NCBI GenBank assembly: GCA_017654855.1
Contig: CM030332.1
Location: forward strand, 496,001 to 560,000
DNA length: 64,000 bases
Direction: 5' to 3'
From: Podospora anserina
Lineage: Eukaryota
Both the position numbers and the translations under genes were made by a program. Below are positions 1,802 through 14,759 of the stretch, one piece after another. Within the stretch, counting starts at the first letter, position 1. Every line of letters begins with the position of its first letter. A model generated the notes under the pieces. The model was not told where the DNA came from, ran no database searches, and saw only the letters and a program-made list of their open reading frames with translations.

Positions 1802-2103
1802 TGGAGACTGTGGTCTTGTTGCTGAAGGATGTAAGGAGAAACTAGCCAGGTGGTGGCAGAAGTCGATTTGGCAAATTCTACGGAAAACAGCCAAGAGAGG
1901 TTGAGGAATTTGGTGAAAAATAGTTTGAAAAGTCAATGATCAAACGTGGGGTGGTCCCAGAAGCTGCCTGGCTAACAAACAGCTTCACAAAAGGAAAGAG
2001 CGCCCTGTGATTCACGTCATGGACAAATAAAGTAACTACGACACCAGCACGGCCTTGGAGGTAACGGCACACACCACGTTGCTTGAGCGTCTGCTAGAAT
2101 AAA

Positions 2104-5100
2104 CTAAAAGATGGAAATCTCCTCTTCCTGTTCATTGTGTGTAATCCAATCTCCCGGGAGAGACCCAACTCCCACTCTCTCGTATATTCTTCTCCCACCA
2201 CTGTCCGTCCATCCACCAATTCCAACCACCACGAGGACATGGTGCTCAAGGGCCCTGGCAGGCTTATTGCTCTTCGACTTTCGCCTCCCAACAGCCACAA
2301 CTCTCAATTCCTTGGCGTCATCTATCCCGGTAGGTCGCTGCCCAGCATCCCATTTGATCTTCTTCTCAACAACTTTCAACCCTACCACCAGTCTTCGACC
2401 CTTCCCGCTGAGGTTGTTGTCTTGATCTGTGCGCCCGGTATGCCACATGGAACTAGCAGTACTATTCCCTGACCCGCTGGTATCAAGACTCATTTCCCAA
2501 ACCGCAGCTCCCCACGGCGACCGAACGTCATCCTCCAGCCAATGAACTCCCTCGAACGGCAAATCCATGAAACCAATCGCACCCGTGTAAGCCATCCACG
2601 ACCAGCTAGGTGGCACCCTATACCGTCCCAGCCCTTCCTTGGGGAACTCGATCCTCCGCATACCCCCTGGTTCCTCGCAGGTCCAAAGCAAACTCCTCCC
2701 AAAAAAAGGGACTCTGTCAAAGATCCCATACCCCCCTCTCGTGTCGAAAGCGGCCACGAGCCTCTGCTCCAAGCCAGCGATGGCAATAGGGCGGTCGTAT
2801 GCTCTCGTGAATTGCAGTCGGGAATAGGTCTTGTAAAGGGATTCGTACAGGCGGATCTTGCCCCCTTTGCTCGAGGTCAGGGCTACTTGCGGGAAGTTGG
2901 GGTCGCCGAGAAAAGAGGATTGGTTACTTTTAAACAAGAAAGGTTAGTTAGTGTAACAAAGGAAACAATCAAGAGATCCAAGGACGTGCTTTGTCATCTT
3001 TGTAAGTGTTTCACAGCGCACCCCAGCACCGCACTCAAAATATGTCTGTCGTTCGGTGAAATAGATCGTTCGGCGCGCAAGAGCTCTTTCTTGTAGCACC
3101 CAACCACGTTGGTTGAGAGGACCATCGATGACATCTGTCTGGAAGTTGTCAATTGCCTCGCAGACATAGACCATGGCGTTGTTGTCTTCGCTGTCTCCAA
3201 CGTCGCCCTTGCCACTGTTAGCAGACAGATTGAGGGCAACAGACTTTCTTTGTGGGCGTGAAGACAAGAATCCGCTCGAAGTGCCACTGGCACTGCTGGC
3301 CGCAATCACACAATAGGCCAAACTGAACACTGTCTCCATCTTCTGAGCTTCAGTCTCAAAGTCACCCTGTGGGCCTTGAACGATACAGAGAGAGTCAATC
3401 CACAGGTACCGGATCCCAAGAGCTCTGGTCACGGAAACTGCGTCCTTGAACGTCTTAGGAAGGCTACTAATAGCTATCCCGGATGTAAGCCTGGGGCTGA
3501 CGTTGGTGGCGGTGGTGGAGAAATGGTTGTTATGGCGAGAGTCTCCCCACGGGTGTGATAGTGCGATGTACCGTGTGTCTTCTCCTTTGAGACCTAGCGA
3601 AGTTGAGGAACACAGTAAAATTGATTGCTGGCTTGCAGAGCTCCCGACATCGAGAAGTTTGGTAGGGAGAGCCAAACCCTTGTTCGACGGGATTGCTTTG
3701 AGGTAGCAGTCTGGGTGGTTGAGATCGCAATCGTTCAGCCAGTTGGCAAGAAGGGTGAAGTATGCGTCACTGTATGTTGACATCAGGGCTGGCAGTCCGA
3801 TTTGAATCTCGTCAGCTGCGTGCCTGAAACTGGGCGGCGCTCGCAACGGGTACTTTGCTATCAGCCTGTTAGTCAGTGAACTGAAGGAGTATTGCATCTA
3901 GCTAGCATTATTCTTGACTTACTCGGAACAAGACAAAGTGACAGAAAAGGATCAGGCATACGATCCAAAAAAAGATGAGAGCCGATTCTTTGTAATTTTA
4001 CCAAGTCAGTGTCACCTTTGGGCGTTGTTCCTGACTTGGTGATACAAGCATCGAAAACAAGCATGTGTAGCTCGCAATTACGGGACGTCGATTTGATAGT
4101 CGCAAAGCTATCTTGGCAAGGCTCCGGGGAAAGCAGATCTCGACTCGTGCACATTGGGCAAAGTCTCTGGATTGAGTTTGCAGGAAGTGGGTTTGATGCC
4201 AATGACCGGATACAGCGTTGGCGCAAGGCGAATTCATTGTCGACTGGATAGCTCCAAGTCGTAACTAACTGTGATTTGTTAAGCCATGTGCTGAGCCGTG
4301 AAGGGAGCAACTCAGGAGGTTGATCTTACAGGCTACATGAAGCTATCAGCGCTCATCTCCTCCGGCAGAGGCAGTAGCTGGATAAGCCAAAAAAAAAAGG
4401 AAAAAGAAAAAAAAAACTTACGATCTGGCACAGTTGACAGGCCGATGGGTCAATTTAAAGCAGAAATCGCTAGCTTTCTTACAGAATCACTCACATGCTA
4501 CAAATAAGTTCACAGTCAGATACCCGAGACGATTTAGAAATTAGTGTCCAAGGAACATACCGTCTACCCGTTCGAGCCGTGATCCTCGAGGTCAGTGAAA
4601 TCCATGAATCTGCAGATACAAAGGCGACTCACATACTGATGGTCGTCAGCTCTCGACTCTTCTCAACAGTCTTGGTTCTTTTGTATCATGAACCTACTGT
4701 CTAAATGTGTTCAGCGGAGTGAATGATGTGTCAGTTGGTCATCTTCCCAGAGTCATATCGATACTGATACGGTTCACGTACCTCCTAAAGTCCCATCAGC
4801 GGAGTTCTTCATTACAGGACAACCGGGATATCATACAAGATTCGGCTGTGTTTTGGGAAGCTCATCCCCTAGTCGGCTTTTTGCTGCTGTTCTCTTGGGC
4901 TTCATTACTTGGAGGGGTGCTGGTGGTGCAATGTTTGCTCGGTCTTTCCTAAAGCAAAGGTAATCGCCTCCCTGAGACTCATCATGTATGGCCTTTCCCC
5001 AAATAGCTTCCAACTTTTCCTTCAGCTCGCCAGCATCAGCTCGGCATCTGCTAATCTGGCTAGGCACCATGTTTTCACTGGGTAACTCAACAACAAGAAG

Positions 5101-6873
5101 TCTGTCCCTAACAAGTCGAACGATATCTGCGAGTGCCGAACCACCGGCCCGGTTGCATTCTGGATCATTCAAAATCTCAGCGATCCAATGACTCGCAATG
5201 TCACTCACTCGGGCAACATTTCGGTCCACTGTGAAGTAAAGGGTGTCTGTGTGCGGGTTCTCGCGGATTTTATGTTGGTCATAGAAGCTCGCCAACCCAT
5301 CGTTCCCGTACAAAATGATGATGACGAATTCGAGAATAACGCAACCGATAGACCAGATATCGAAGCGGCGTGACCTTGGGAGATGTAGATTGGCGACAGC
5401 TTCGGGAGCCTCGTAATGAGATGTCGTGAATTTCTGGTTTGTCATGTCCTTTCTTCGAGCGGTGGCAAAGACGTGCTGCTTGGCCAGGCCAAGGTCGGCA
5501 ATTTTCAACGTTCCCAGCCAACGGGAATCGTTGGTCTGTGACTGGTTGAACTGTAAAATATTCTCTGGCTTCAGATCGCCATGTCGCCAATGTTCATCGC
5601 TGCTTGCATCGCTCTCCTCGCTCACATAAGATCGGTTAGGGTCTTCGCTTCTAAAAGAAACTTCGTCGTCTGATGGTTCAACGAATCGAACGTGAATCTC
5701 GGGTACATTTCTCGGGGACTTGGATGTATCGGGGGTTGTGATGGGGCTGTAATCTTTTGTTTCCCCCTCTCGCGGTTTGACCGAATGCGGAACAGGTACG
5801 GTCAATCTTTCACCAGCTGCCATACCTGCCAGATCTGCTGCCCGTCGGACCACGTTGCCAGTCTTGGTCCTGTTGTTTGTGCCGTGGAGGGTTGAAAGGG
5901 CACTGACTATGCCGAGAACCTCTTCAATGACTGACATGATTCGATCAGGGTCAAGGTCTTTCGGCTCTGGGCCTTGGTTTTCCCAGAGCTCTCGAAGACT
6001 GCCTCCGTCTGCCCACTCAAACATGATGTAGTGCTCCGGACCACATCGCAAGGCGGCTAATGGGCGGATGAGATGTTTATGATGCAGCTTGTTTATCTCT
6101 TCCAAGGCAGAGGTCTCGTGGTTCCAAGCCGTTTCCACATTGTATCCAGGTTCCGAAGTTAGTGGTTTCAGCTGTTTCAATGCAACCTTGAGCGACTTTC
6201 CGAAGTATCTGTCGTCTTGGTGATGGGCATGGTGAATTTCTGCCTCGTAGACCGTACTGAAATGGCCAATATGAGGCTTCTGGGCTTTCCAGGTGATTGG
6301 GAGCACACATCCTTCCTTCAGCTCGTATGTGAACTTGTCTTTCAGAATAACAGGTGCTGTGAACATTGCTTGGTCCTGAAAGAATCGAAACGATATGTGC
6401 GCCCAGAGTTTGTCATGAAATACGTCCCATGCCTGGTGGTGGGCAACGCGTTGATGGCATGGTAACTTTCCCCCGACGCAGGGTATACGGTCCACCGGGA
6501 GGTGTTCGTCTGTCATGCTGTGTTTCCGGCAACTCTCCATGATAGCCAACAGGTCATTTGGAGAAGCCTCATTGCCAACCACTAGAATAAGAAACAGTGT
6601 CTTTCCGTGACCGCAAACAAAATCAATCACATCAGTCGAAGCCTTTTCTGGAAGCACCAGCCGAATGGTTGCATAGTTGACCAATTTATCGATTTCTGTG
6701 ACTGGGAGGAATTCCTTGCCGCTAGGAAGGGCGCTGGTGACAAAAGACTGTACTAGCCTTCTCCGGAGACTCCTAAGTTCTTCCTCTGGATTGGGCCTCA
6801 CCACAGCGGGTTCCTGGTAAGTTTCAGGGGGAGGTTTTCGACGACGACCAAAGAAGCGCCGCATGGTACCCAT
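2104..6873 (-). CDS. Ser/Thr protein kinase-HET domain fusion protein (~1364 aa, 11 exons incl. seven 3-nt micro-exons)
   Basis: Exons 6873-4837, 4784-4782, 4700-4698, 4635-4633, 4563-4561, 4497-4495, 4424-4422, 4332-4330, 4268-3923, 3857-2990, 2926-2104 all join in frame. Kinase motifs VALK, HGDLKPEN, IADLGL, YEAPE, DIWSIG. HET motifs LPTKLLDV, YIALSHPWG, LPKTFKDAV, YLWIDSLCIVQ, PLNQRGWVLQERALARR, PPSWSWMAY. An upstream in-frame ATG at 6918 is an alternative start. Confidence 0.85.
4269..4836 (-). other. Ladder of 8 phase-0 introns and 7 single-codon micro-exons (GAG ACA TAT ACG CAT ATC CCT = ETYTHIP)
   Basis: On the minus strand, YAG-NNN-GT(A/G) recurs seven times: ttag GAG gtacgt, ttag ACA gtaggt, tcag TAT gtgagt, gtag ACG gtatgt, gtag CAT gtgagt, ccag ATC gtaagt, gtag CCT gtaaga. 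Introns are 52, 81, 62, 69, 63, 70, 89 and 61 nt, with CTGA/TTGAC/TTAAC branch-like motifs. Confidence 0.88.
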
Positions 6874-7987
6874 GTTACAATAACAGAAGGACAGACGGTG
6901 TTTTTGTCGTAAAGACATCTCAACATCCAGAAAGTTTTGCTGCGAGTTGTCGTTGAAATATAGAGTCCCTCGAGGTGCGGGGTATAACCTTCTTGGCCAT
7001 CTTATCTGCTCCTAGGTCAGCAATCGTGACTTGCATATGGCTTGCTTTCTGTGGTTCTAGGGCTGATGAGTGGTTGGGTCTCGGTGATGAGGGGTTCAGC
7101 TTTTCCCCTCTCGTTGGCGCAAGTCCGTATCTGTCCCTGCATCGTGGGCATGCTGTTCGTCAATAATCAGTCAAGCGGGATGAGGAGTCAAAAGTGCAGT
7201 TCTCATGCAGCATAGGTGACCAGCGAGGACGAGGGGAAATGTGATGGATTGCAACAACGCGCATTCGATATGGCGCGGTGCAGTTGGTTGATGACACCCC
7301 GATCTGCCAGCCAGCTGCAATCAGGTGAAAACCTGGGGGAGGGGTCAGCCTTTTGGGTTCCCTCCCGTCCTGATTCCATCATTCCAACCAAAAAGGATTC
7401 CTTATCTCTGAATTCTTGATCGGCCAGAAAGGACGTACCTTATCCCGGGTTTTCATCGCATTCATCCCGTCACGGGGACAAAAAGAGTGTTGCCTAGCTA
7501 GACTAAGTCTCCGATTGCGCTTGGATGCCTTTAGACTTACCGGATCCTGAAGAAATGTCCCGATTCCTGTCCATGGCTCATTCAGGCTATGCCCAATGCC
7601 GACATGCGACTTGCACTGCGTGTTGGTCCCGGGCCCGATTCCTGGTGACCAATAGAGGGCCTCTCACACACCACCTCTTCTCTTCACACACCCTTAGCAC
7701 TTGTTTTACGACTTCGGCACCCCCCAGGCGTCCCTCAGGCATCTCCAAGGCATCCTCCACACCCTTTGAGCGAATATCGAGTCATCCAATATGGTCCGCA
7801 TGGTCCGCCATCATGAAGGGTATGTAGCCTCGTCTTGAGTCTTAAACTGGAAAAGTCCCAGATAAAACTTGCATCAATCAATTCCCTTCGCTTCTGCACT
7901 TTCGTTTACATGCGCTGAATTGCTGCCCCTGGTGCTTTAGCTTGAAGACCCGCCTGTCCGCATTTGCCAAGATCGTCCCAGGGCACC

Positions 7988-9797
7988 ATGTCAGGGCCTC
8001 TTTATAAGTCGCTGAAAGGCAGCCTTATCACGTCAAGCCTTGGCGAACTCCAGTTTCTACCGCGGAGCGTTGTGGAAGCAAAGGTTACCATTGAGAAAAT
8101 CACCCCACATCTCAGTTTTGGATCACGACTTTACACTCTGGTCTCCGAAGATAGCCTGGCCCGTCAGATTCATCAACAGGCAAGGAGAGTGTTTGCTATT
8201 CTTGTCCTTATCGGCAAGCCATCAGCAATCCAGACCTTATTCACGAAGGACGGCCTTATCGATAATCATCTCCCTCTTGAGGTTGTCAAAAATGGAGAGC
8301 ATGATACCATCGTCTCTTCAACCACTCAGAAAACGTTTCCGGCGTTCGACAACTGGGGAGATCCGGCTGCCGTCGACAGCTTTCTCGAGAAGCAATACCT
8401 TGTTCTGGCACCAGTGTTTCACACAGCTGGCCAGGCCCTGAAGTTGAACCGCAGTCATCCCCTACCCTTCGAGGAATGCACATGGAAGGCGAGCGGGAGT
8501 GACGGCGTATCGGTCTATCATGGCAGACTTCATCCTTCCCACCAGTTGCCTCCTTTCACGGTAAGAAGTTCGTTTTGCGGCCCTGTCGCTCTCCTGTACT
8601 AATTGCAAATATTTAATGTAGGCCACCTCGTACGACAGGATCGCTATCAAAGAAATCCCAGACAAGAAAGCCTTCGACCGGGAAAAGGAGAACCTCGACA
8701 GAATCCAATCCTTACACCACAAGCATCTGATACGTCTTCTCGGAAGCTGCGAGAAAGGTTCCGTAAATTACTTCTTCTTCCCTTGGGCAGCTGGTGGTAA
8801 TCTGAGGGACCTTTGGCACCTCCAAGGGGATGGCTCACGCACGAGCTTGTGGACACCGCAGACCATTGCATGGGCTCTCGATCAAATGCTTGGTCTCGTG
8901 GATGCCATCAGAATCCTCCACGACAATGGAATCCGCCATGGGGACATCAAACCCCAGAATATCCTTCACTTTCCTGAAGCCACCCAAGGATCCGGTAAAA
9001 TTGGAGGTAGACTTGTCCTTGCGGATGTCGGAGTGTCCAAGTTTCACCACGAGGCGACGGCACTCAGAAACGAGGCCACAAACACTCGAGATGCGACCAT
9101 ATCTTACGAAGCCCCTGAGGCCACCTCCGAGTTCAGAAACGGAAAACCAAGGCCTCGTCGCTATGACATGTGGTCACTGGGCTGCATGTTTTTGGAGTTT
9201 GTGGTCTGGCTTCAATACGAATTCGAGGCCGTCGAGATGTTTCGCAAACAGCGGATGCCGCGACGAGGAGACCCCAGGACAGCTCCTGGAAACTTCTTCA
9301 CACAGTCCACCACCGACGATGGCCCGGCGACTATTCATTCCAAAGTGACTGATGCAATCGGGCTTCTGCGAGATGACCCTCGCTGCTGCAGTGACGGGGA
9401 CAGCACTACCGCTGTGGAGGATCTCATTACCTTGATTGAGCGAGATCTTTTGCAGATAGATCCTGAAAAGCGCGCCAAAGCACCTGCACTACACAAGAAC
9501 CTCAACCGGATTGTGCAACGGGCGCACCGGGACCCTCAGTACCTCTGCCGACTTGTCAACCCTTCCCCCGAGATTCCCAGGTTCTTCCAAAGGAGTAAGC
9601 GGAGAGATAGCAAAGGAAGTACTAGAAAGCTCTCTTTGTCATCCTCCTCGTCTGTCAGCAGTTATTCGGGCTCTTCATTTACGCCAACCGACACAGGGAG
9701 AAGTCGACGGTCATCGGTTTCATCGGTCTCCAATGTTGGACGAATGTCAAAAATGTCTTTAGGTGACGAGGCCGCGGTGATTGAGGAGGAATCATGA
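7988..9797 (+). CDS. Ser/Thr protein kinase (~582 aa), paralogous to the kinase part of the neighbouring kinase-HET gene, Ser-rich C-tail
   Basis: Exons 7988-8560 and 8622-9797 (intron gtaaga...actaat...tag) join in frame. Motifs IAIK, HHKHLIRLL, FPWAAGGNLRDLW, HGDIKPQN, LADVG, YEAPE, DMWSLG. Confidence 0.9.
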
Positions 9798-10329
9798 TGG
9801 AAAAGAAAGGCCAATATGACAAAAACTGTCTTTTGGTACTCTGCTGTCTTTCTTCACATTTCTGGGATGGAAACGGCGCTCGGGTTGGTCACAGGTTATG
9901 AAAAGGGTCTTGGCTATCTTCTTTATGTTTATTACCAACAAAGCTATTTGTAGGCGACTCACCTACCTAGCTGCCTATTTCTCGGGATAGATCTACCAAT
10001 ACGTTAAAGCTTCAATTCAGGATGTTGTTCATTTCCTCAATCTTCAGGCTGTGGAGTTTCATCACCTAGCCAACGCCTAACCATTGTTTAGTTTACCCCC
10101 TACTCACCCAAATTTGTCCCACCGTGCAAGTTATTTTGTCCACAGTTTGACCGGCTACCTGCATCTGCAGCACTAGCACGCACCTGTCACGTGTTAATCC
10201 CAAGCCCCAAAATTTCTCCTCTAGCGATATCGCTTGTCCAGGGCGCTTCGCCAATCACCACTCACCTTGCCACAAGAAAACCCTAGGTACCTCAGTGACT
10301 GTTTTTGCTAAACTACCGATACGGTAACC

Positions 10330-11361
10330 ATGCGGACCAATCTAGAAATCGTCCAAGAATGCGACAAGTTAGTTGACATCCCCCCAATTTTTGGTTTCAG
10401 CACAACCAATCACTGACATCATACCCCCTTACCTAGCTTCCCCTACCCCAACCTAACCAACAACACCGCCTACACCAAAGCCATTGAACCACTATGGCTC
10501 TTCTTTCTCCCAGACGACCTAGAACCCCACGGCTTACTCATCCAATCAGTAGTCGACCGCATGCCATGGACCCCCTCCTTCCGCCTCATCCCTGAAAGCA
10601 AACAAGTCCACCTTCTCAAATACCCCGGAAGAAAAGATTGGCAAACCGCCTGCAACGAAGCAATCGATGAACTCCTCGATCTTACCCGTGCCAAAAAGGT
10701 TTTTCCCCGCCTAGGCAAGAAAAGAGATGAGAAGTTCCCTATCGTCGGCGCCAAATTCGATATTGGGATCGAAAGGTCAGCGATGAGCTTGTTCGGGATT
10801 ATTGGACAGGGTGCTCACATGACGGTTTACACTCGTACGTCATTGGGGGAGATGAAGTTCTGGATTCCGAGGCGGAATGCCAACAAGTCGACTTATCCCA
10901 ATATGCTGGATCAGGCTGTTGCTGGTGGGGTGGCGCAGGGGGAGACGCCGTTTGAGTGCATCGTTCGTGAGGCGGGGGAGGAGGCCGCGTTGGATGAGGA
11001 GGTGGTGAGGAGGGATGTTGTTGCGGCGGGGACGGTGACGTGGTTCAATGTTTCTGATGAGAAGGCGGGTGGGGAGGTGGGTTTGATGAATCCGGGGGTA
11101 TTGTATGTTTATGATCTGGAGGTTGGGCGAGAGGTGGTTTTCAAGCCGGTGGATGATGATATTCAGGCTTTTCATTTGATGAGTGTGGATGAGGTGAGAG
11201 ATGCGATGAGGAATGGGGAGTTTAAGCCGAGTTGTGCGGCGGTCATGATGGATTTCTTTGTGAGGCATGGGTTTATCACGGCGGAGAATGAAGTGGATTA
11301 TGTTGAGATTGTGTCGAGGCTGCATCGTAAGCTGCCGTTTAGAATCAGCCCTGGTTTTTGA
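10330..11361 (+). CDS. Nudix hydrolase, thiamine-pyrophosphokinase-related (YJR142W-like)
   Basis: Exons 10330-10367 and 10437-11361 join in frame. Motifs IERSAMSLFGI, WIPRR..KSTYPNMLDQAVAGG and Nudix box GETPFECIVREAGEEA. Confidence 0.88.
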
Positions 11362-12092: not shown

Positions 12093-14759
12093 ATGGCTTT
12101 CACTCATTCAAGCCTACGGCTCTTGCCTCTAATCTCTCTGTTTCTTTCACTCGGTTCTGCCCTTCCCAGCAAGCACTTGAACCGACAGGCTGCGCCTTCC
12201 TACAGTTCTCTCGGTTGCTTCAAGGACAACGAGGGTGGCCAAAGAGCGCTTACTGGCGGAAGCTACGCAGCTGATGACATGACTGTTGCCAGCTGCGCAT
12301 CATTCTGCTCCAAGTTCGAGTTGTTTGGTGTCTCTTACGGCCGTGAGTGTTACTGCGGTCAATCAGTCACAAACGGCAACACCGAGGTGGATGCTGCCGA
12401 CTGCTCTTTCCCATGTGGAGGAGATCCAAGCGAGAAATGCGGCGCTGGCAACAGGGTCAACCTGTACTCCAACGACAACCCATCGATTCGAAGCCCTGCA
12501 ACTCTACCCGGCATTACTTCACTCGGCTGTTTCGTCGACACCGCTGCTCGCATCCTACCACACAACATCATCGGCACCGATGACATGACGGCTGCGAAAT
12601 GCGCGGAGAATTGTGCTGATTACGACTTCTTTGGCACGCAATGGTCCCGCGAGTGCTTTTGTGGCTCGATCTTGCCAACAGAACAGGCAACAGCATCGGA
12701 TTGCTCCATGCCTTGCTCAGGCGATGACAATGAGCTATGCGGTGCCGGCATGCGGTTGAATGTCTATAGCTTCGATAAGGAAACAACGACAACCTCCTCC
12801 TCGGAGCCCACGTCTTCACCGACATCTGAACCAGCTACACCCGTGGCCATCATCGATGGGTTCGAATACCTAGGTTGCTACAACGATAATGTCCCACAAC
12901 GCGTCTTGGGAGGAAAGGTTGTGGTGGATACTGCCATGACACTGGAAAGATGTGCTTCGGAGTGCAAGGACGGCGGGTATGCACTTTTTGGTGTTCAGTA
13001 CAGCTCCGAGTGCTTCTGTGGCACCTCTCTCGATGTCGATAGTGTTCAGGTCCCCGAGGCAGAATGTGCCATGGCATGCAGTGGTAACTCATTGCAGAAG
13101 TGTGGTGCTGGCAACCGGTTGAGTCTTTATGCTGATCCTGGCATTGAGCAAACCGAAACGACTAACCCGGAATCCATTGGCCAGTTTACTTACCGATCTT
13201 GCTGGACGGATGATGTTGGCAACCGGTCTCTTGCGGATTTGGAGCACCGGACAGACGACATGACGGTAGCCAAATGCGCAGATATCTGCCAAGAATATAC
13301 ATACTTTGGTGTCGAGTATGGGAGGGAGTGCTACTGCGGTGACAAGCTTGTTGGTCAGGCTGCTTTGGAAAAAGAGTGCAGGGTTCTGTGCGTGGGTGGA
13401 GGTTATAACTGGTGTGGTGGACCTCTCCGGCTGAACCTGTATGCGAAAGAAGCTATCACTACAATTGCGTCCACCACTGTTTTCGAGACTTTCACGACCT
13501 CCGAGGTTGAATCAACTACAGTGCCAGAGCCAACTACCACTGCCTCTGACATTATTACCACGGCAGATGAGCCATCAAGCACTCCTTCGGAAACCTTGAC
13601 CACAACAGTCCAGGAAATCTCGATCTCGACCGAAGAACCAGGCACCACGACTGAGGAATTCACCACAACAACCGAGGAGTCAACCATCTTAACCGAGGAG
13701 CCAACCGCATTGACCGAGGAATCAACCACGTCCACAGAGGAGCCGACCTCTCCAACCACCGAGGAGCCTACTACGACATTCACTGTTGAAGCGAGCACCA
13801 CCGTTAAACCGTCAACAACTTCGGACATGGTCTTGTCAACAACGACTCTGGTAAGCTCCCCTTCATTGGCCCCGACAACAACCGCAACTTCGACCACCAC
13901 GACACAAGGCCCCAGCTCAGTCACGATCACCAGATGTCCTCCAACCCCAACGTGGGTAGGAAGACCTGAGATGTGCTACGACAGTTCTCTCCCCGGTCAA
14001 TGCGAACTGCTTGCATCGACATTGTACCAACCTCAGGCGATGTCCATGTACTTGTCCAACTGTCACTACATTCTCACCCGCTATGGCCTGCAGCCAAACC
14101 CGGTCACATGCTTCCCTACCTCAACAGCAACCAGTCCAGATGCCGCTGCTGCCACCTCGACTATCAGAAGTGTTCACTCATGCTTACGATCCTCCTATGT
14201 CTGCAGTAAAGCCATGACCTGCGAAACAAGCACCCATCCTGTCGGCCAGGTTCCCGTGCCAACTCAAAGCGTTGGCGTCGAGACTCTCAGCGATGGTGGC
14301 TTCGAGAGCGGGCAATTTGGTAGCTGGAACTTGACTGGAGACACCAGGCTCTTGACTGGCCAAATCTCGGCTTTTCAGGCCAGGACAGGAAATCATAGCT
14401 ACTATGTCTACAACCCCAACTACTACCATGCCGGCCTCGTGCTCACGAGACGAGTCGTCGGTGTGGAACCGGGAAAATACTATCGTTTCAAGGCCAATGT
14501 TTGGATTTCGAATAATCAGGTCAACAACTATATCCAGCTGAGTGTATCTCCGCCGGGGCTTGGTCAGCAGTTTATGCAGCGCTACAGTACGGCGGGCGTG
14601 TGGAGGGAGATTGCAGTACATTTTACGACGACGTCTTCTTGGCTTGAGTTGCAGCTTACTGTCGTTGCACAGCCGATGTATATCAACAACCCGCAGCAGT
14701 GGGAGGGGCCGAATAGTATCTTTATTGATGATATTAGTTTGGTGCGTTTGGGGTACTAG
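12093..14759 (+). CDS. Secreted protein with four WSC domains, Thr/Glu-rich stalk and C-terminal CBM-like beta-sandwich
   Basis: Signal peptide, four repeats of GC.D...R.L...MT...C...C...FG..Y..EC.CG...C...C.G....CG...R...Y, TTEEP repeats, and C-terminal LSDGGFESG...W...IFIDDISL. Confidence 0.9.
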   Translation: MAFTHSSLRLLPLISLFLSLGSALPSKHLNRQAAPSYSSLGCFKDNEGGQRALTGGSYAADDMTVASCASFCSKFELFGVSYGRECYCGQSVTNGNTEVDAADCSFPCGGDPSEKCGAGNRVNLYSNDNPSIRSPATLPGITSLGCFVDTAARILPHNIIGTDDMTAAKCAENCADYDFFGTQWSRECFCGSILPTEQATASDCSMPCSGDDNELCGAGMRLNVYSFDKETTTTSSSEPTSSPTSEPATPVAIIDGFEYLGCYNDNVPQRVLGGKVVVDTAMTLERCASECKDGGYALFGVQYSSECFCGTSLDVDSVQVPEAECAMACSGNSLQKCGAGNRLSLYADPGIEQTETTNPESIGQFTYRSCWTDDVGNRSLADLEHRTDDMTVAKCADICQEYTYFGVEYGRECYCGDKLVGQAALEKECRVLCVGGGYNWCGGPLRLNLYAKEAITTIASTTVFETFTTSEVESTTVPEPTTTASDIITTADEPSSTPSETLTTTVQEISISTEEPGTTTEEFTTTTEESTILTEEPTALTEESTTSTEEPTSPTTEEPTTTFTVEASTTVKPSTTSDMVLSTTTLVSSPSLAPTTTATSTTTTQGPSSVTITRCPPTPTWVGRPEMCYDSSLPGQCELLASTLYQPQAMSMYLSNCHYILTRYGLQPNPVTCFPTSTATSPDAAAATSTIRSVHSCLRSSYVCSKAMTCETSTHPVGQVPVPTQSVGVETLSDGGFESGQFGSWNLTGDTRLLTGQISAFQARTGNHSYYVYNPNYYHAGLVLTRRVVGVEPGKYYRFKANVWISNNQVNNYIQLSVSPPGLGQQFMQRYSTAGVWREIAVHFTTTSSWLELQLTVVAQPMYINNPQQWEGPNSIFIDDISLVRLGY

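Follow-up and report, generated by a model that had tools for sequence, protein, structure and literature searches.

A chain of one-codon exons between the kinase and HET parts of a Podospora anserina gene with a divergently transcribed paralogous kinase neighbour

Runs of codon-sized microexons have been described in the nank (NACHT-ANK) genes of Tuber melanosporum (Iotti et al. 2012; PMC4986451, PMC3689799, PMC10197012, PMC9815663, PMC13449251; here and below, statements credited to a paper refer to excerpts of its text). A comparable chain is present in a 64,000-nucleotide (nt) window of Podospora anserina (assembly GCA_017654855.1, contig CM030332.1, positions 496,001 to 560,000 of the forward strand; coordinates below count from the first letter of this window), where two kinase genes stand head to head. 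Gene A (minus strand) joins a kinase to a HET domain through seven exons of 3 nt each; gene B (plus strand) encodes a stand-alone kinase. The preferred reading, to which a probability of about 0.55 is given, is that the two form an ancient two-gene kinase module of filamentous ascomycetes, in which A consists of an N-terminal domain (N-domain), kinase, linker and HET joined via a microexon chain that gates HET output, and B is its partner.

The Tuber genes resemble gene A in having runs of 3-bp exons between short canonical introns, alternative splicing, and a role as fungal non-self or cell-death genes. They differ in that dozens of microexons lie in the C-terminal ankyrin recognition part of truffle NOD-like receptors (NLRs), where they are proposed to diversify recognition, as far as the excerpts show. 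In gene A, seven microexons lie in the linker between kinase and HET, encode a conserved motif and recur at many Pezizomycotina loci; the alternative forms seen are truncating intron retentions, and the host gene is not a NACHT-ANK NLR (a Pfam search of it gave no NACHT or ANK match). In Trichoderma virens Xlr2, inclusion of a fungal microexon likewise decides which protein is made, although there it is a single microexon in a transcription factor gene (PMC11121469). The same excerpt states that functional microexons in filamentous fungi had not previously been described.

HET is among the most numerous fungal cell-death modules, nearly all of unknown function; induction of cell death is known for other HET domains, and the domain is only remotely TIR-like (PMC10197012). 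The het-B locus (Bh: HET plus lectin fold; Bp: PII-like) also comprises two adjacent genes, one with HET, that are proposed or shown to act together (PMC10890737). Its alleles are highly divergent and under balancing selection, whereas A/B orthologues are 96-99% identical across species; unlike in het-B, the partner gene B is a paralogue of the non-HET half of gene A. SARM1/TIR-1 (SAM-SAM-TIR) and IRAK-type kinases with TIR adaptors are alike in logic only, coupling an oligomerising helical domain and/or a kinase to a TIR-type death/NADase domain; SAM Z scores are low (5.4 at best), IRAK4 is unseparated from other kinases, and no membership is claimed. Proteins of the same family, annotated as 'serine threonine kinase' or 'HET-domain-containing', occur in Fusarium, Xylaria, Cladorrhinum and others, with the same order of N-domain, kinase, linker and HET, 40-54% identity and a length like that of the 1364-amino-acid (aa) model of gene A. 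These are unstudied database records, and those from Podospora end once the kinase is complete. A literature search of openly accessible main texts found no paper that deals with a pair of kinase-HET and kinase genes or with microexons in Podospora, and the terms 'microexon', 'micro-exon' and 'small exon' have zero occurrences in PMC9801653. The structure of gene A should surprise a specialist, while kinase-HET records, codon-sized microexons and two-gene HET loci are each already known.

One transcription unit with seven 3-nt exons

RNA contigs from four coded runs (X1, X3, X10 and X14, from four studies) were mapped to positions 2000..10000; the RNA nature of the runs was taken from their spliced joints, and the contigs do not define true transcript ends. 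The kinase and HET halves of gene A are one transcription unit, as a single 5012-nt contig (X3 record 14) runs through both in the segments 7819..7437, 7330..4836, 4702..4633, 12 extra letters, 4268..3923, 3857..2990 and 2926..2091. The features of gene A, in order of transcription, are as follows.

7820..7892, between the genes: gap of 73 nt between the A and B RNA contigs (A contig to 7819 in X3, B contig from 7893 in X1), presumed shared promoter
2091..7819, minus: gene A transcription unit, kinase plus HET (single RNA contig, X3 record 14)
7331..7436, minus: 5' untranslated region (UTR) intron, 106 nt (joint 7330/7437 in X1 and X3; canonical ends)
4837..6873, minus: coding exon 1, N-domain and kinase, 679 codons, ending ...PNL on a codon boundary (open reading frame (ORF), Pkinase match)
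6289..6771, minus: N-terminal domain common to gene B, residues ~35-195 (hhalign)
5590..5883, minus: acidic Ser-rich insert of ~98 aa in kinase A, not in B (gap in the A/B alignment; A-type consensus)
4269..4836, minus: chain of eight mini-introns and seven 3-nt exons (RNA contig joints)
4782..4784, minus: microexon 1, GAG (E) (junction CTT/GAG/ACA in X1, X3 and X10)
4698..4700, minus: microexon 2, ACA (T) (runs into retained intron 3, 4697..4636, in most contigs)
4633..4635, minus: microexon 3, TAT (Y) (RNA contigs; Tyr codon kept in the chains of related loci)
4561..4563, minus: microexon 4, ACG (T) (opens the 12 letters that separate 4633 from 4268 in X1, X3 and X10; also X14)
4495..4497, minus: microexon 5, CAT (H) (RNA contigs)
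4422..4424, minus: microexon 6, ATC (I) (RNA contigs)
4330..4332, minus: microexon 7, CCT (P) (RNA contigs)
3923..4268, minus: linker exon, opening L-V-T-T-W-S-Y-P-V-D-N-E-F-A on a codon boundary, with two Cys-containing stretches (translation)
3858..3922, minus: intron, 65 nt, GT..AG (joint in 4/4 runs)
2990..3857, minus: HET-domain exon, Pfam match at ~3088..3570 (PF06985)
2927..2989, minus: last intron, 63 nt, with a GC donor (GC..AG) (joint in 4/4 runs)
2104..2926, minus: last exon, encoding the part C-terminal to HET, with the stop at 2104..2106 (by tblastn, kinase-HET homologues align right through it)

The start codon of gene A is the ATG at 6873, with a further ATG upstream at 6918, and the kinase frame stays open until a TGA at 4833..4831. 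Its Pkinase match (PF00069) scores 74 bits against a cut-off of 31.7. The HET match is stronger still (PF06985, 104.9 bits against a cut-off of 22.5, E 6e-30), covers the full profile (1-146) and lies in the same frame as the kinase. Between the two halves are 568 nt with a stop codon, and ~930 nt separate the stop at 4831 from the HET frame. The earlier note on this DNA had described A simply as a kinase-HET protein. HET in the same frame and on one transcript bears this out, but the protein is not encoded in one open frame, since the 568 nt with a stop intervene and seven 3-nt exons join the halves. The chain was missed in that note because the interruption between kinase and HET had been overlooked. 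With all exons joined, gene A comprises 4095 nt that encode 1364 aa without a stop, a length comparable to annotated fusions of other Sordariales (1328-1346 aa).

Two joints in the RNA contigs (4836 to 4702, and 4633 to 4268 with 12 unplaced letters) seem non-canonical, yet both are fully resolved by eight canonical introns. In order, these measure 52, 81, 62, 69, 63, 70, 89 and 61 nt, with the donors GTATGA, GTACGT, GTAGGT, GTGAGT, GTATGT, GTGAGT, GTAAGT and GTAAGA and acceptors that are all YAG. The exons between them are GAG, ACA, TAT, ACG, CAT, ATC and CCT (E-T-Y-T-H-I-P). The 12 unplaced letters are ACG-CAT-ATC-CCT in X1, X3 and X10, and 10 letters of X10 record 6 are compatible with GAG-ACA-TAT-ACG. 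Thus, the chain is spliced in RNA: the letters of all seven AG/NNN/GT units are present in RNA contigs of 3-4 runs, as 3-bp exons flanked by canonical introns. Strict YAG-NNN-GTRNGH sites occur 22 times in the window on both strands, and seven of them fall within these 568 nt.

Each of the eight mini-introns contains an in-frame stop; therefore, retention of any one of them ends translation right after the kinase. Contigs of X1, X3 and X10 keep intron 3 (4697..4636), which places the stop after ...PNLETVGS. X14 keeps introns 1 and 3, and retention of intron 6 follows by arithmetic on its record 9, where segments are masked. A 684-aa database protein ending in ...PNLETVGS, found on 5 contigs, is the product expected with intron 3 retained.

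Tandem duplication is not supported as the origin of the chain: outside their splice signals the eight introns do not align with one another (mean column identity 42%), and no kinship between them is recognisable. A TRF search of the chain found only a poly-A/T run at 4389..4416. This run, which reads as ~28 T in the minus-strand direction, is part of mini-intron 7, and reads and contigs break there. Other features of the gene A transcript include a long 5' UTR (6874..7819, minus strand; ~840 nt once the 106-nt intron is removed) and the donor of the last intron, which reads GCACGT instead of GT and is still spliced in 4/4 runs.

The chain and its motif in related loci

A scan of metagenome contigs with the B-type alignment yielded 78 loci. 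Of these, 36 are at least 5 kb long, and 25 of the 36 have a kinase and then HET on one strand. Chains stand at the equivalent place in 19 of these 25 kinase-HET loci. A strict search (four or more AG/NNN/GT units, 40-140 nt apart) across 688 kb, comprising both strands of all loci and the window, returned 17 chains, every one just downstream of a kinase of the A/B family and none elsewhere: 13 between kinase and HET, one in the window, one in L074 (downstream of the kinase at the contig end) and two past the kinase match in the short loci L057 and L058. With one codon per microexon, the pattern E-[T/S]-Y-[T/S]-H matches six times, always in the linker (window, L001, L002-4 and L036); neither reversed sequence nor any of 5 shuffles gave a match. 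In 11 loci beyond the window (L002, L012, L016, L033, L041, L042, L050, L053, L070, L072 and L077), a complete path leads in frame from the kinase to the downstream part. For L003 and L004, near-copies of L002, the strict path-finder, the sole version applied to them, gave no path. Relaxed 'paths' in L047, L059 and L076 were rejected as spurious, having 0-1 microexon and the wrong motif.

The six remaining kinase-HET loci are chain-less, and four of them (L047, L059, L061 and L064) encode the linker in a single uninterrupted exon with the sequence ...D-Y-A-[H/L]-P...W-E-F-x-x-D-N-x-F-A. Annotated homologues commonly carry D-Y-[T/A]-x-P-P-L-x-D-W-E-[F/Y]-x-V-D-N-x-F-A. Because relatives encode this motif in a continuous exon, the microexons are read as dividing its first half codon by codon. 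As judged from these alignments, the linker motif is [D/E]-x-Y-x-[H/F]-x-P followed by W-x-[F/Y]-x-V-D-N-x-F-A, with the microexons encoding the first half. The W..DN.FA part, encoded by the linker exon, is kept in homologues; the exon's reading frame is open from the first base on, and up to 'CPMC' it contains no Met, which leaves 58 conserved codons free of a start. It matched no Pfam family at E up to 0.1, and an Atlas search gave no usable match.

The full E-[T/S]-[Y/F]-[T/S]-H peptide is in none of the annotated homologues examined. Partial microexon peptides are seen in three of them (P0241, P0254 and P0255: T-T-H-P, N-Y-S-H-K and E-T-H-A-R), where transcript-based annotation may have caught some of the 3-nt exons.

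In a tree built by a quick search on 171 columns of the kinase C-lobe (25 rows, with B-type sequence as the outgroup), five chain-less rows fall at four places among 18 chain-bearing ones. Such scattering fits an old chain that was lost several times.

Two paralogous kinases and the age of their pairing

The partner gene B has a simpler structure.

7988..8560 and 8622..9797 joined, plus: gene B, 582 aa, ATG at 7988, stop at 9797
7988..8560, plus: exon 1, with the N-domain at 7988..8431 and then the start of the kinase (ORF translation)
8561..8621, plus: intron, 61 nt, GT..AG (sequence; RNA joints in 4/4 runs)
8622..9797, plus: exon 2, kinase and a disordered Ser-rich basic tail at ~9603..9794 (Pkinase match)

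A query with exon 2 is 100% identical to a 582-aa database protein, and its Pkinase match (PF00069) scores 60.7 bits against a cut-off of 31.7. The C-terminal Ser-rich basic tail has a predicted local distance difference test score (pLDDT) of ~30, indicating disorder.

Genes A and B are, by sequence comparison, paralogous Ser/Thr kinases with a common N-terminal domain. Their kinase parts share 33-38% identity (BLASTP E 1e-29 and 8e-17). The N-terminal parts are only weakly similar by BLASTP (24% identity, E 0.012), but their profiles match over 152 columns by hhalign with a probability of 99.4 and E 2e-21. Several observations of the earlier note hold at this point: the divergent start codons are found at 6873 (minus) and 7988 (plus), all of the motif pairs quoted for the N-terminal and kinase segments are present in the translations, the RRxS/RKxS sites can be read in the Ser-rich tail of B, and the catalytic Lys, HGD.K..N and Mg-binding Asp are retained, being invariant in 15 A-type and 15 B-type sequences.

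Protein kinases are recognised by the beta3 Lys, the alphaC Glu, the catalytic-loop Asp and Asn, the Mg-binding Asp and the APE motif. Invariant columns are K233, E253, H431-G-D433, K435, N438, D460, G462 and E488-P490-E491 in the A-type family (n=15 sequences) and K201, E212, H297-G-D299, K301, N304, D326, G328 and Y353-E-A-P-E357 in the B-type family (n=15 sequences). Since Lys, Glu, HGDxKPxN, DxG and APE are invariant in both families, A and B are probably active kinases. They would be of the non-RD kind, as the Arg of HRD is replaced and H-G-D is invariant in both families. Non-RD kinases lack an Arg before the catalytic Asp, and such kinases have been linked to innate immunity.

The acidic insert of kinase A follows the LH of helix E, precedes the HGD catalytic loop and is kept in the A-type consensus. 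In a kinase profile search, ULK1, CaMK1 and ASK1 rank first (~1e-17). Foldseek places IRAK4 at the top without separation, the top 50 lying between 6e-11 and 2.7e-10, a factor of five. From these comparisons, the kinase is best described as a divergent eukaryotic protein kinase. The same kinase family also occurs with non-HET partners, namely PF28131 plus PNP_UDP, PF28131 alone, ankyrin repeats and PF26082 (proteins P0259, P0308, P0337 and P0348). Fusion to such varied partners suggests that the kinase module has perhaps been swapped between effector or repeat domains.

The N-domain of gene B was modelled with AlphaFold2 (AF2) at a pLDDT of 92.3 and a predicted template modelling score (pTM) of 0.87. 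It matched no Pfam family at E up to 0.1, and Foldseek against the PDB gave no match (best E 1.4). In the Atlas it falls in unnamed ascomycete clusters only, and a search of 1.84 billion proteins yielded 180 representatives at E up to 0.001. With VIA-align, residues ~62-145 resemble SAM domains, the best match being Tric1 (Z 5.4, root-mean-square deviation 2.2 over 62/65 residues), a score below the tool's trust level. Other matches are tankyrase (Z 5.1), SARM1 (Z 4.6) and TIR-1 (Z 3.3), and SAM domains make up the larger part of the top 50. A SAM-like N-domain is thus a lead from a structural model.

Spliced RNA contigs of A and of B occur in 4/4 runs, and the contigs end 73 nt apart (7819 and 7893). 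The earlier note had asked whether the linkage is conserved, and it is: among the 25 B-type entries with serial locus tags, an A-type gene stands at the neighbouring tag number for at least 11. QC76x_101410 and 101420 are adjacent in five Podospora species. Of the other entries, one has its A-type gene at a distance of two tags and one at a distance of 93, and for 12 the matches listed include no A with the same prefix. Many further A/B matches lie within one species on equal-sized contigs. Metagenomic contigs agree, as in 14 of the 25 kinase-HET loci another kinase lies upstream and is divergently oriented; L008, which is cut at the contig end, comes in addition. The second kinase is instead downstream, convergent or in tandem, in L061, L053, L070 and L077; L061 is also chain-less, as is L064. 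In L015 and L017, a B-type kinase has no A-type or HET gene within 8-10 kb upstream, and B genes may thus also occur alone.

A tree of 17 pairs (34 of ~360 proteins, picked where a partner was assignable, with A rows cut at residue 720) places all A proteins on one side and all B proteins on the other (SH-aLRT, the Shimodaira-Hasegawa-like approximate likelihood ratio test, 100), with largely mirrored branching. This topology puts the duplication before the split of Sordariales, Hypocreales, Xylariales and Helotiales. Fusarium decemcellulare, Cercophora samala and F. lateritium each have two pairs in their assemblies, and these branch as pairs, so later duplications would have copied both genes together. 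Annotated kinase-HET fusions number at least 120, with lengths of 1191-2270 aa. Taken together, these comparisons support an ancient, co-inherited and divergently transcribed unit. The earlier note's reading of the pair is borne out to this extent, its sensor/executor or inhibitor/toxin roles staying conjectural.

A proposed kinase module and its alternatives

Under the two-gene module reading, the product of gene B would combine an N-domain, a non-RD Ser/Thr kinase that is active and a tail rich in Ser. The two genes would share a short promoter region, with gene A read in the opposite direction and supplying a paralogous N-domain and kinase, a linker and then HET as a TIR-like cell-death domain. 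An exon of only 3 nt has no room for the factors of both its splice sites together, and for this reason the introns of the chain would have to be removed one after another. A minority of transcripts would be fully spliced and yield small amounts of the 1364-aa kinase-HET protein, so that the chain may limit or gate the amount of HET-bearing protein. A and B could associate through their homologous N-domains or kinase domains, and phosphorylation may control when HET fires, with B acting perhaps as a restraint, perhaps as a trigger of A. An immune role is suggested by analogy with other HET genes (PMC10197012, PMC12881547).

If this module exists, the family wires HET to an active-looking kinase, as read from its residues, and to a paralogous partner, providing a tractable two-gene system in a model fungus. 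The chain itself is a second, independent case of one-codon exon runs, supported by RNA, conserved in many fungi and placed where it would decide on HET translation. How dangerous domains stay silent then becomes testable, through the conditions under which the retained introns leave. On the practical side, 3-nt exons are invisible to standard gene finders, and the public annotation of the Podospora species complex needs correction, because it divides gene A into two genes.

Several points weigh against this reading. Removal of intron 3 rests on one contig from one run (X10 record 6, 144 nt), with a depth of 6.37 compared to 31.9 for the intron-3-retaining contig, and X10 record 6 itself keeps intron 6. 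No contig with all eight mini-introns removed is present among the contig sets of the four runs and, as none shows it, the fully spliced form is one that we infer. Contigs lose rare variants and yield no isoform ratios, and those that prevail keep at least one mini-intron, giving the 684-aa kinase only. Public annotation of six Podospora genomes likewise has a stand-alone kinase ending after the kinase. Six chain-bearing loci lack a complete path by the strict rules, seven of the 25 kinase-HET loci have no second kinase on the contig, and four are otherwise arranged. Finally, both trees are quick searches, the chain tree has 171 columns, and parsimony cannot separate gain from loss.

A bolder form of the module reading takes the chain as an ancient, selected 'splicing fuse': HET would be translated only after slow sequential splicing is completed, a harmless kinase being made otherwise, and in combination with the paired kinase B and an N-domain that oligomerises in SAM-like fashion, the result would be a kinase-TIR signalling module of fungi with an output set by RNA processing. 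This form is speculative and should be held as doubtful, though its chances are real. If true, its output could respond to stress, infection or disturbed splicing.

Alternatively, an ancestral fusion may have been broken in Podospora, leaving kinase A (684-711 aa) and a HET protein as separate products, the latter from an internal Met or its own promoter, with the chain untranslated and inconsequential. The prevailing contigs that stop after ...PNLETVGS, the 684-aa database product and the six annotations of a stand-alone kinase would all suit such a break, as would relatives annotated at 607-674 aa in Cercophora, Triangularia and Apiosordaria. It is nevertheless unlikely, given that all seven microexons are exactly 3 nt long and that the exons on either side of the chain meet it at codon boundaries. 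Moreover, the residues encoded by the microexons agree with a motif that homologues encode without interruption, the frame is kept in the 11 other loci, the HET-side frame has no start codon for 58 conserved codons, and other Sordariales are annotated with fusions of 1328-1346 aa.

The chain might instead diversify the linker, with in-frame skipping of single microexons producing up to 128 motif variants, as proposed for the NACHT-ANK genes of T. melanosporum. The frame would survive the skipping of any microexon, the truffle genes offer a precedent (PMC4986451, PMC3689799, PMC10197012 and PMC9815663), and partial sets such as T-T-H-P and N-Y-S-H-K appear in some annotated homologues. However, ACG-CAT-ATC-CCT is always complete in the three runs covering that part, and the four contig sets, in which rare forms are lost, contain no skipping joint, only intron retention. 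Among homologues that encode the motif in an uninterrupted exon, it shows conservation and not variability. Diversification is accordingly given little credence.

As for the pairing, the adjacency of A and B could be meaningless, a leftover of local duplication with kinases that act independently. Tandem or inverted duplicates often remain neighbours for a while, and 11 of the 25 kinase-HET loci have no divergent partner on the contig. Yet the A/B split is older than the divergence of the four orders, and adjacency persists; the within-genome paralogous pairs of F. decemcellulare, C. samala and F. lateritium also branch as pairs. This makes mere proximity very improbable, and a co-inherited two-gene module is preferred.

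The weakest alternative, raised in the earlier note, is an allorecognition (het) locus whose divergent A/B alleles are incompatible and kill fused cells; although a HET domain is present and two-gene HET loci such as het-B are described in P. anserina (PMC10890737), it is very unlikely to be correct, as the orthologues of six genomes, one per species, are 95.7-99.0% identical and form single 90% clusters, the pair is kept across fungal classes with mirrored trees, the P. anserina het gene set is stated in an excerpt to be completely characterised (PMC10890737), most HET genes are not het genes (PMC10197012), and the neighbourhood consists of housekeeping-type genes. The kinase ORF of gene A, for example, is 97% identical to QC764_101410 of P. 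pseudoanserina and 95.7-98.0% identical to its counterparts in five named species. To our knowledge, the A/B pair is not among the characterised P. anserina het loci, none of which is a kinase.

An 'immune island' around the pair was also considered and rejected, as the rest of the window holds housekeeping-type genes. The neighbours on the plus strand are a NUDIX-domain ORF (10561-11361) and a gene for an 888-aa protein (12093-14759) with four WSC domains, a CBM_4_9 domain and a Thr/Ser-rich middle.

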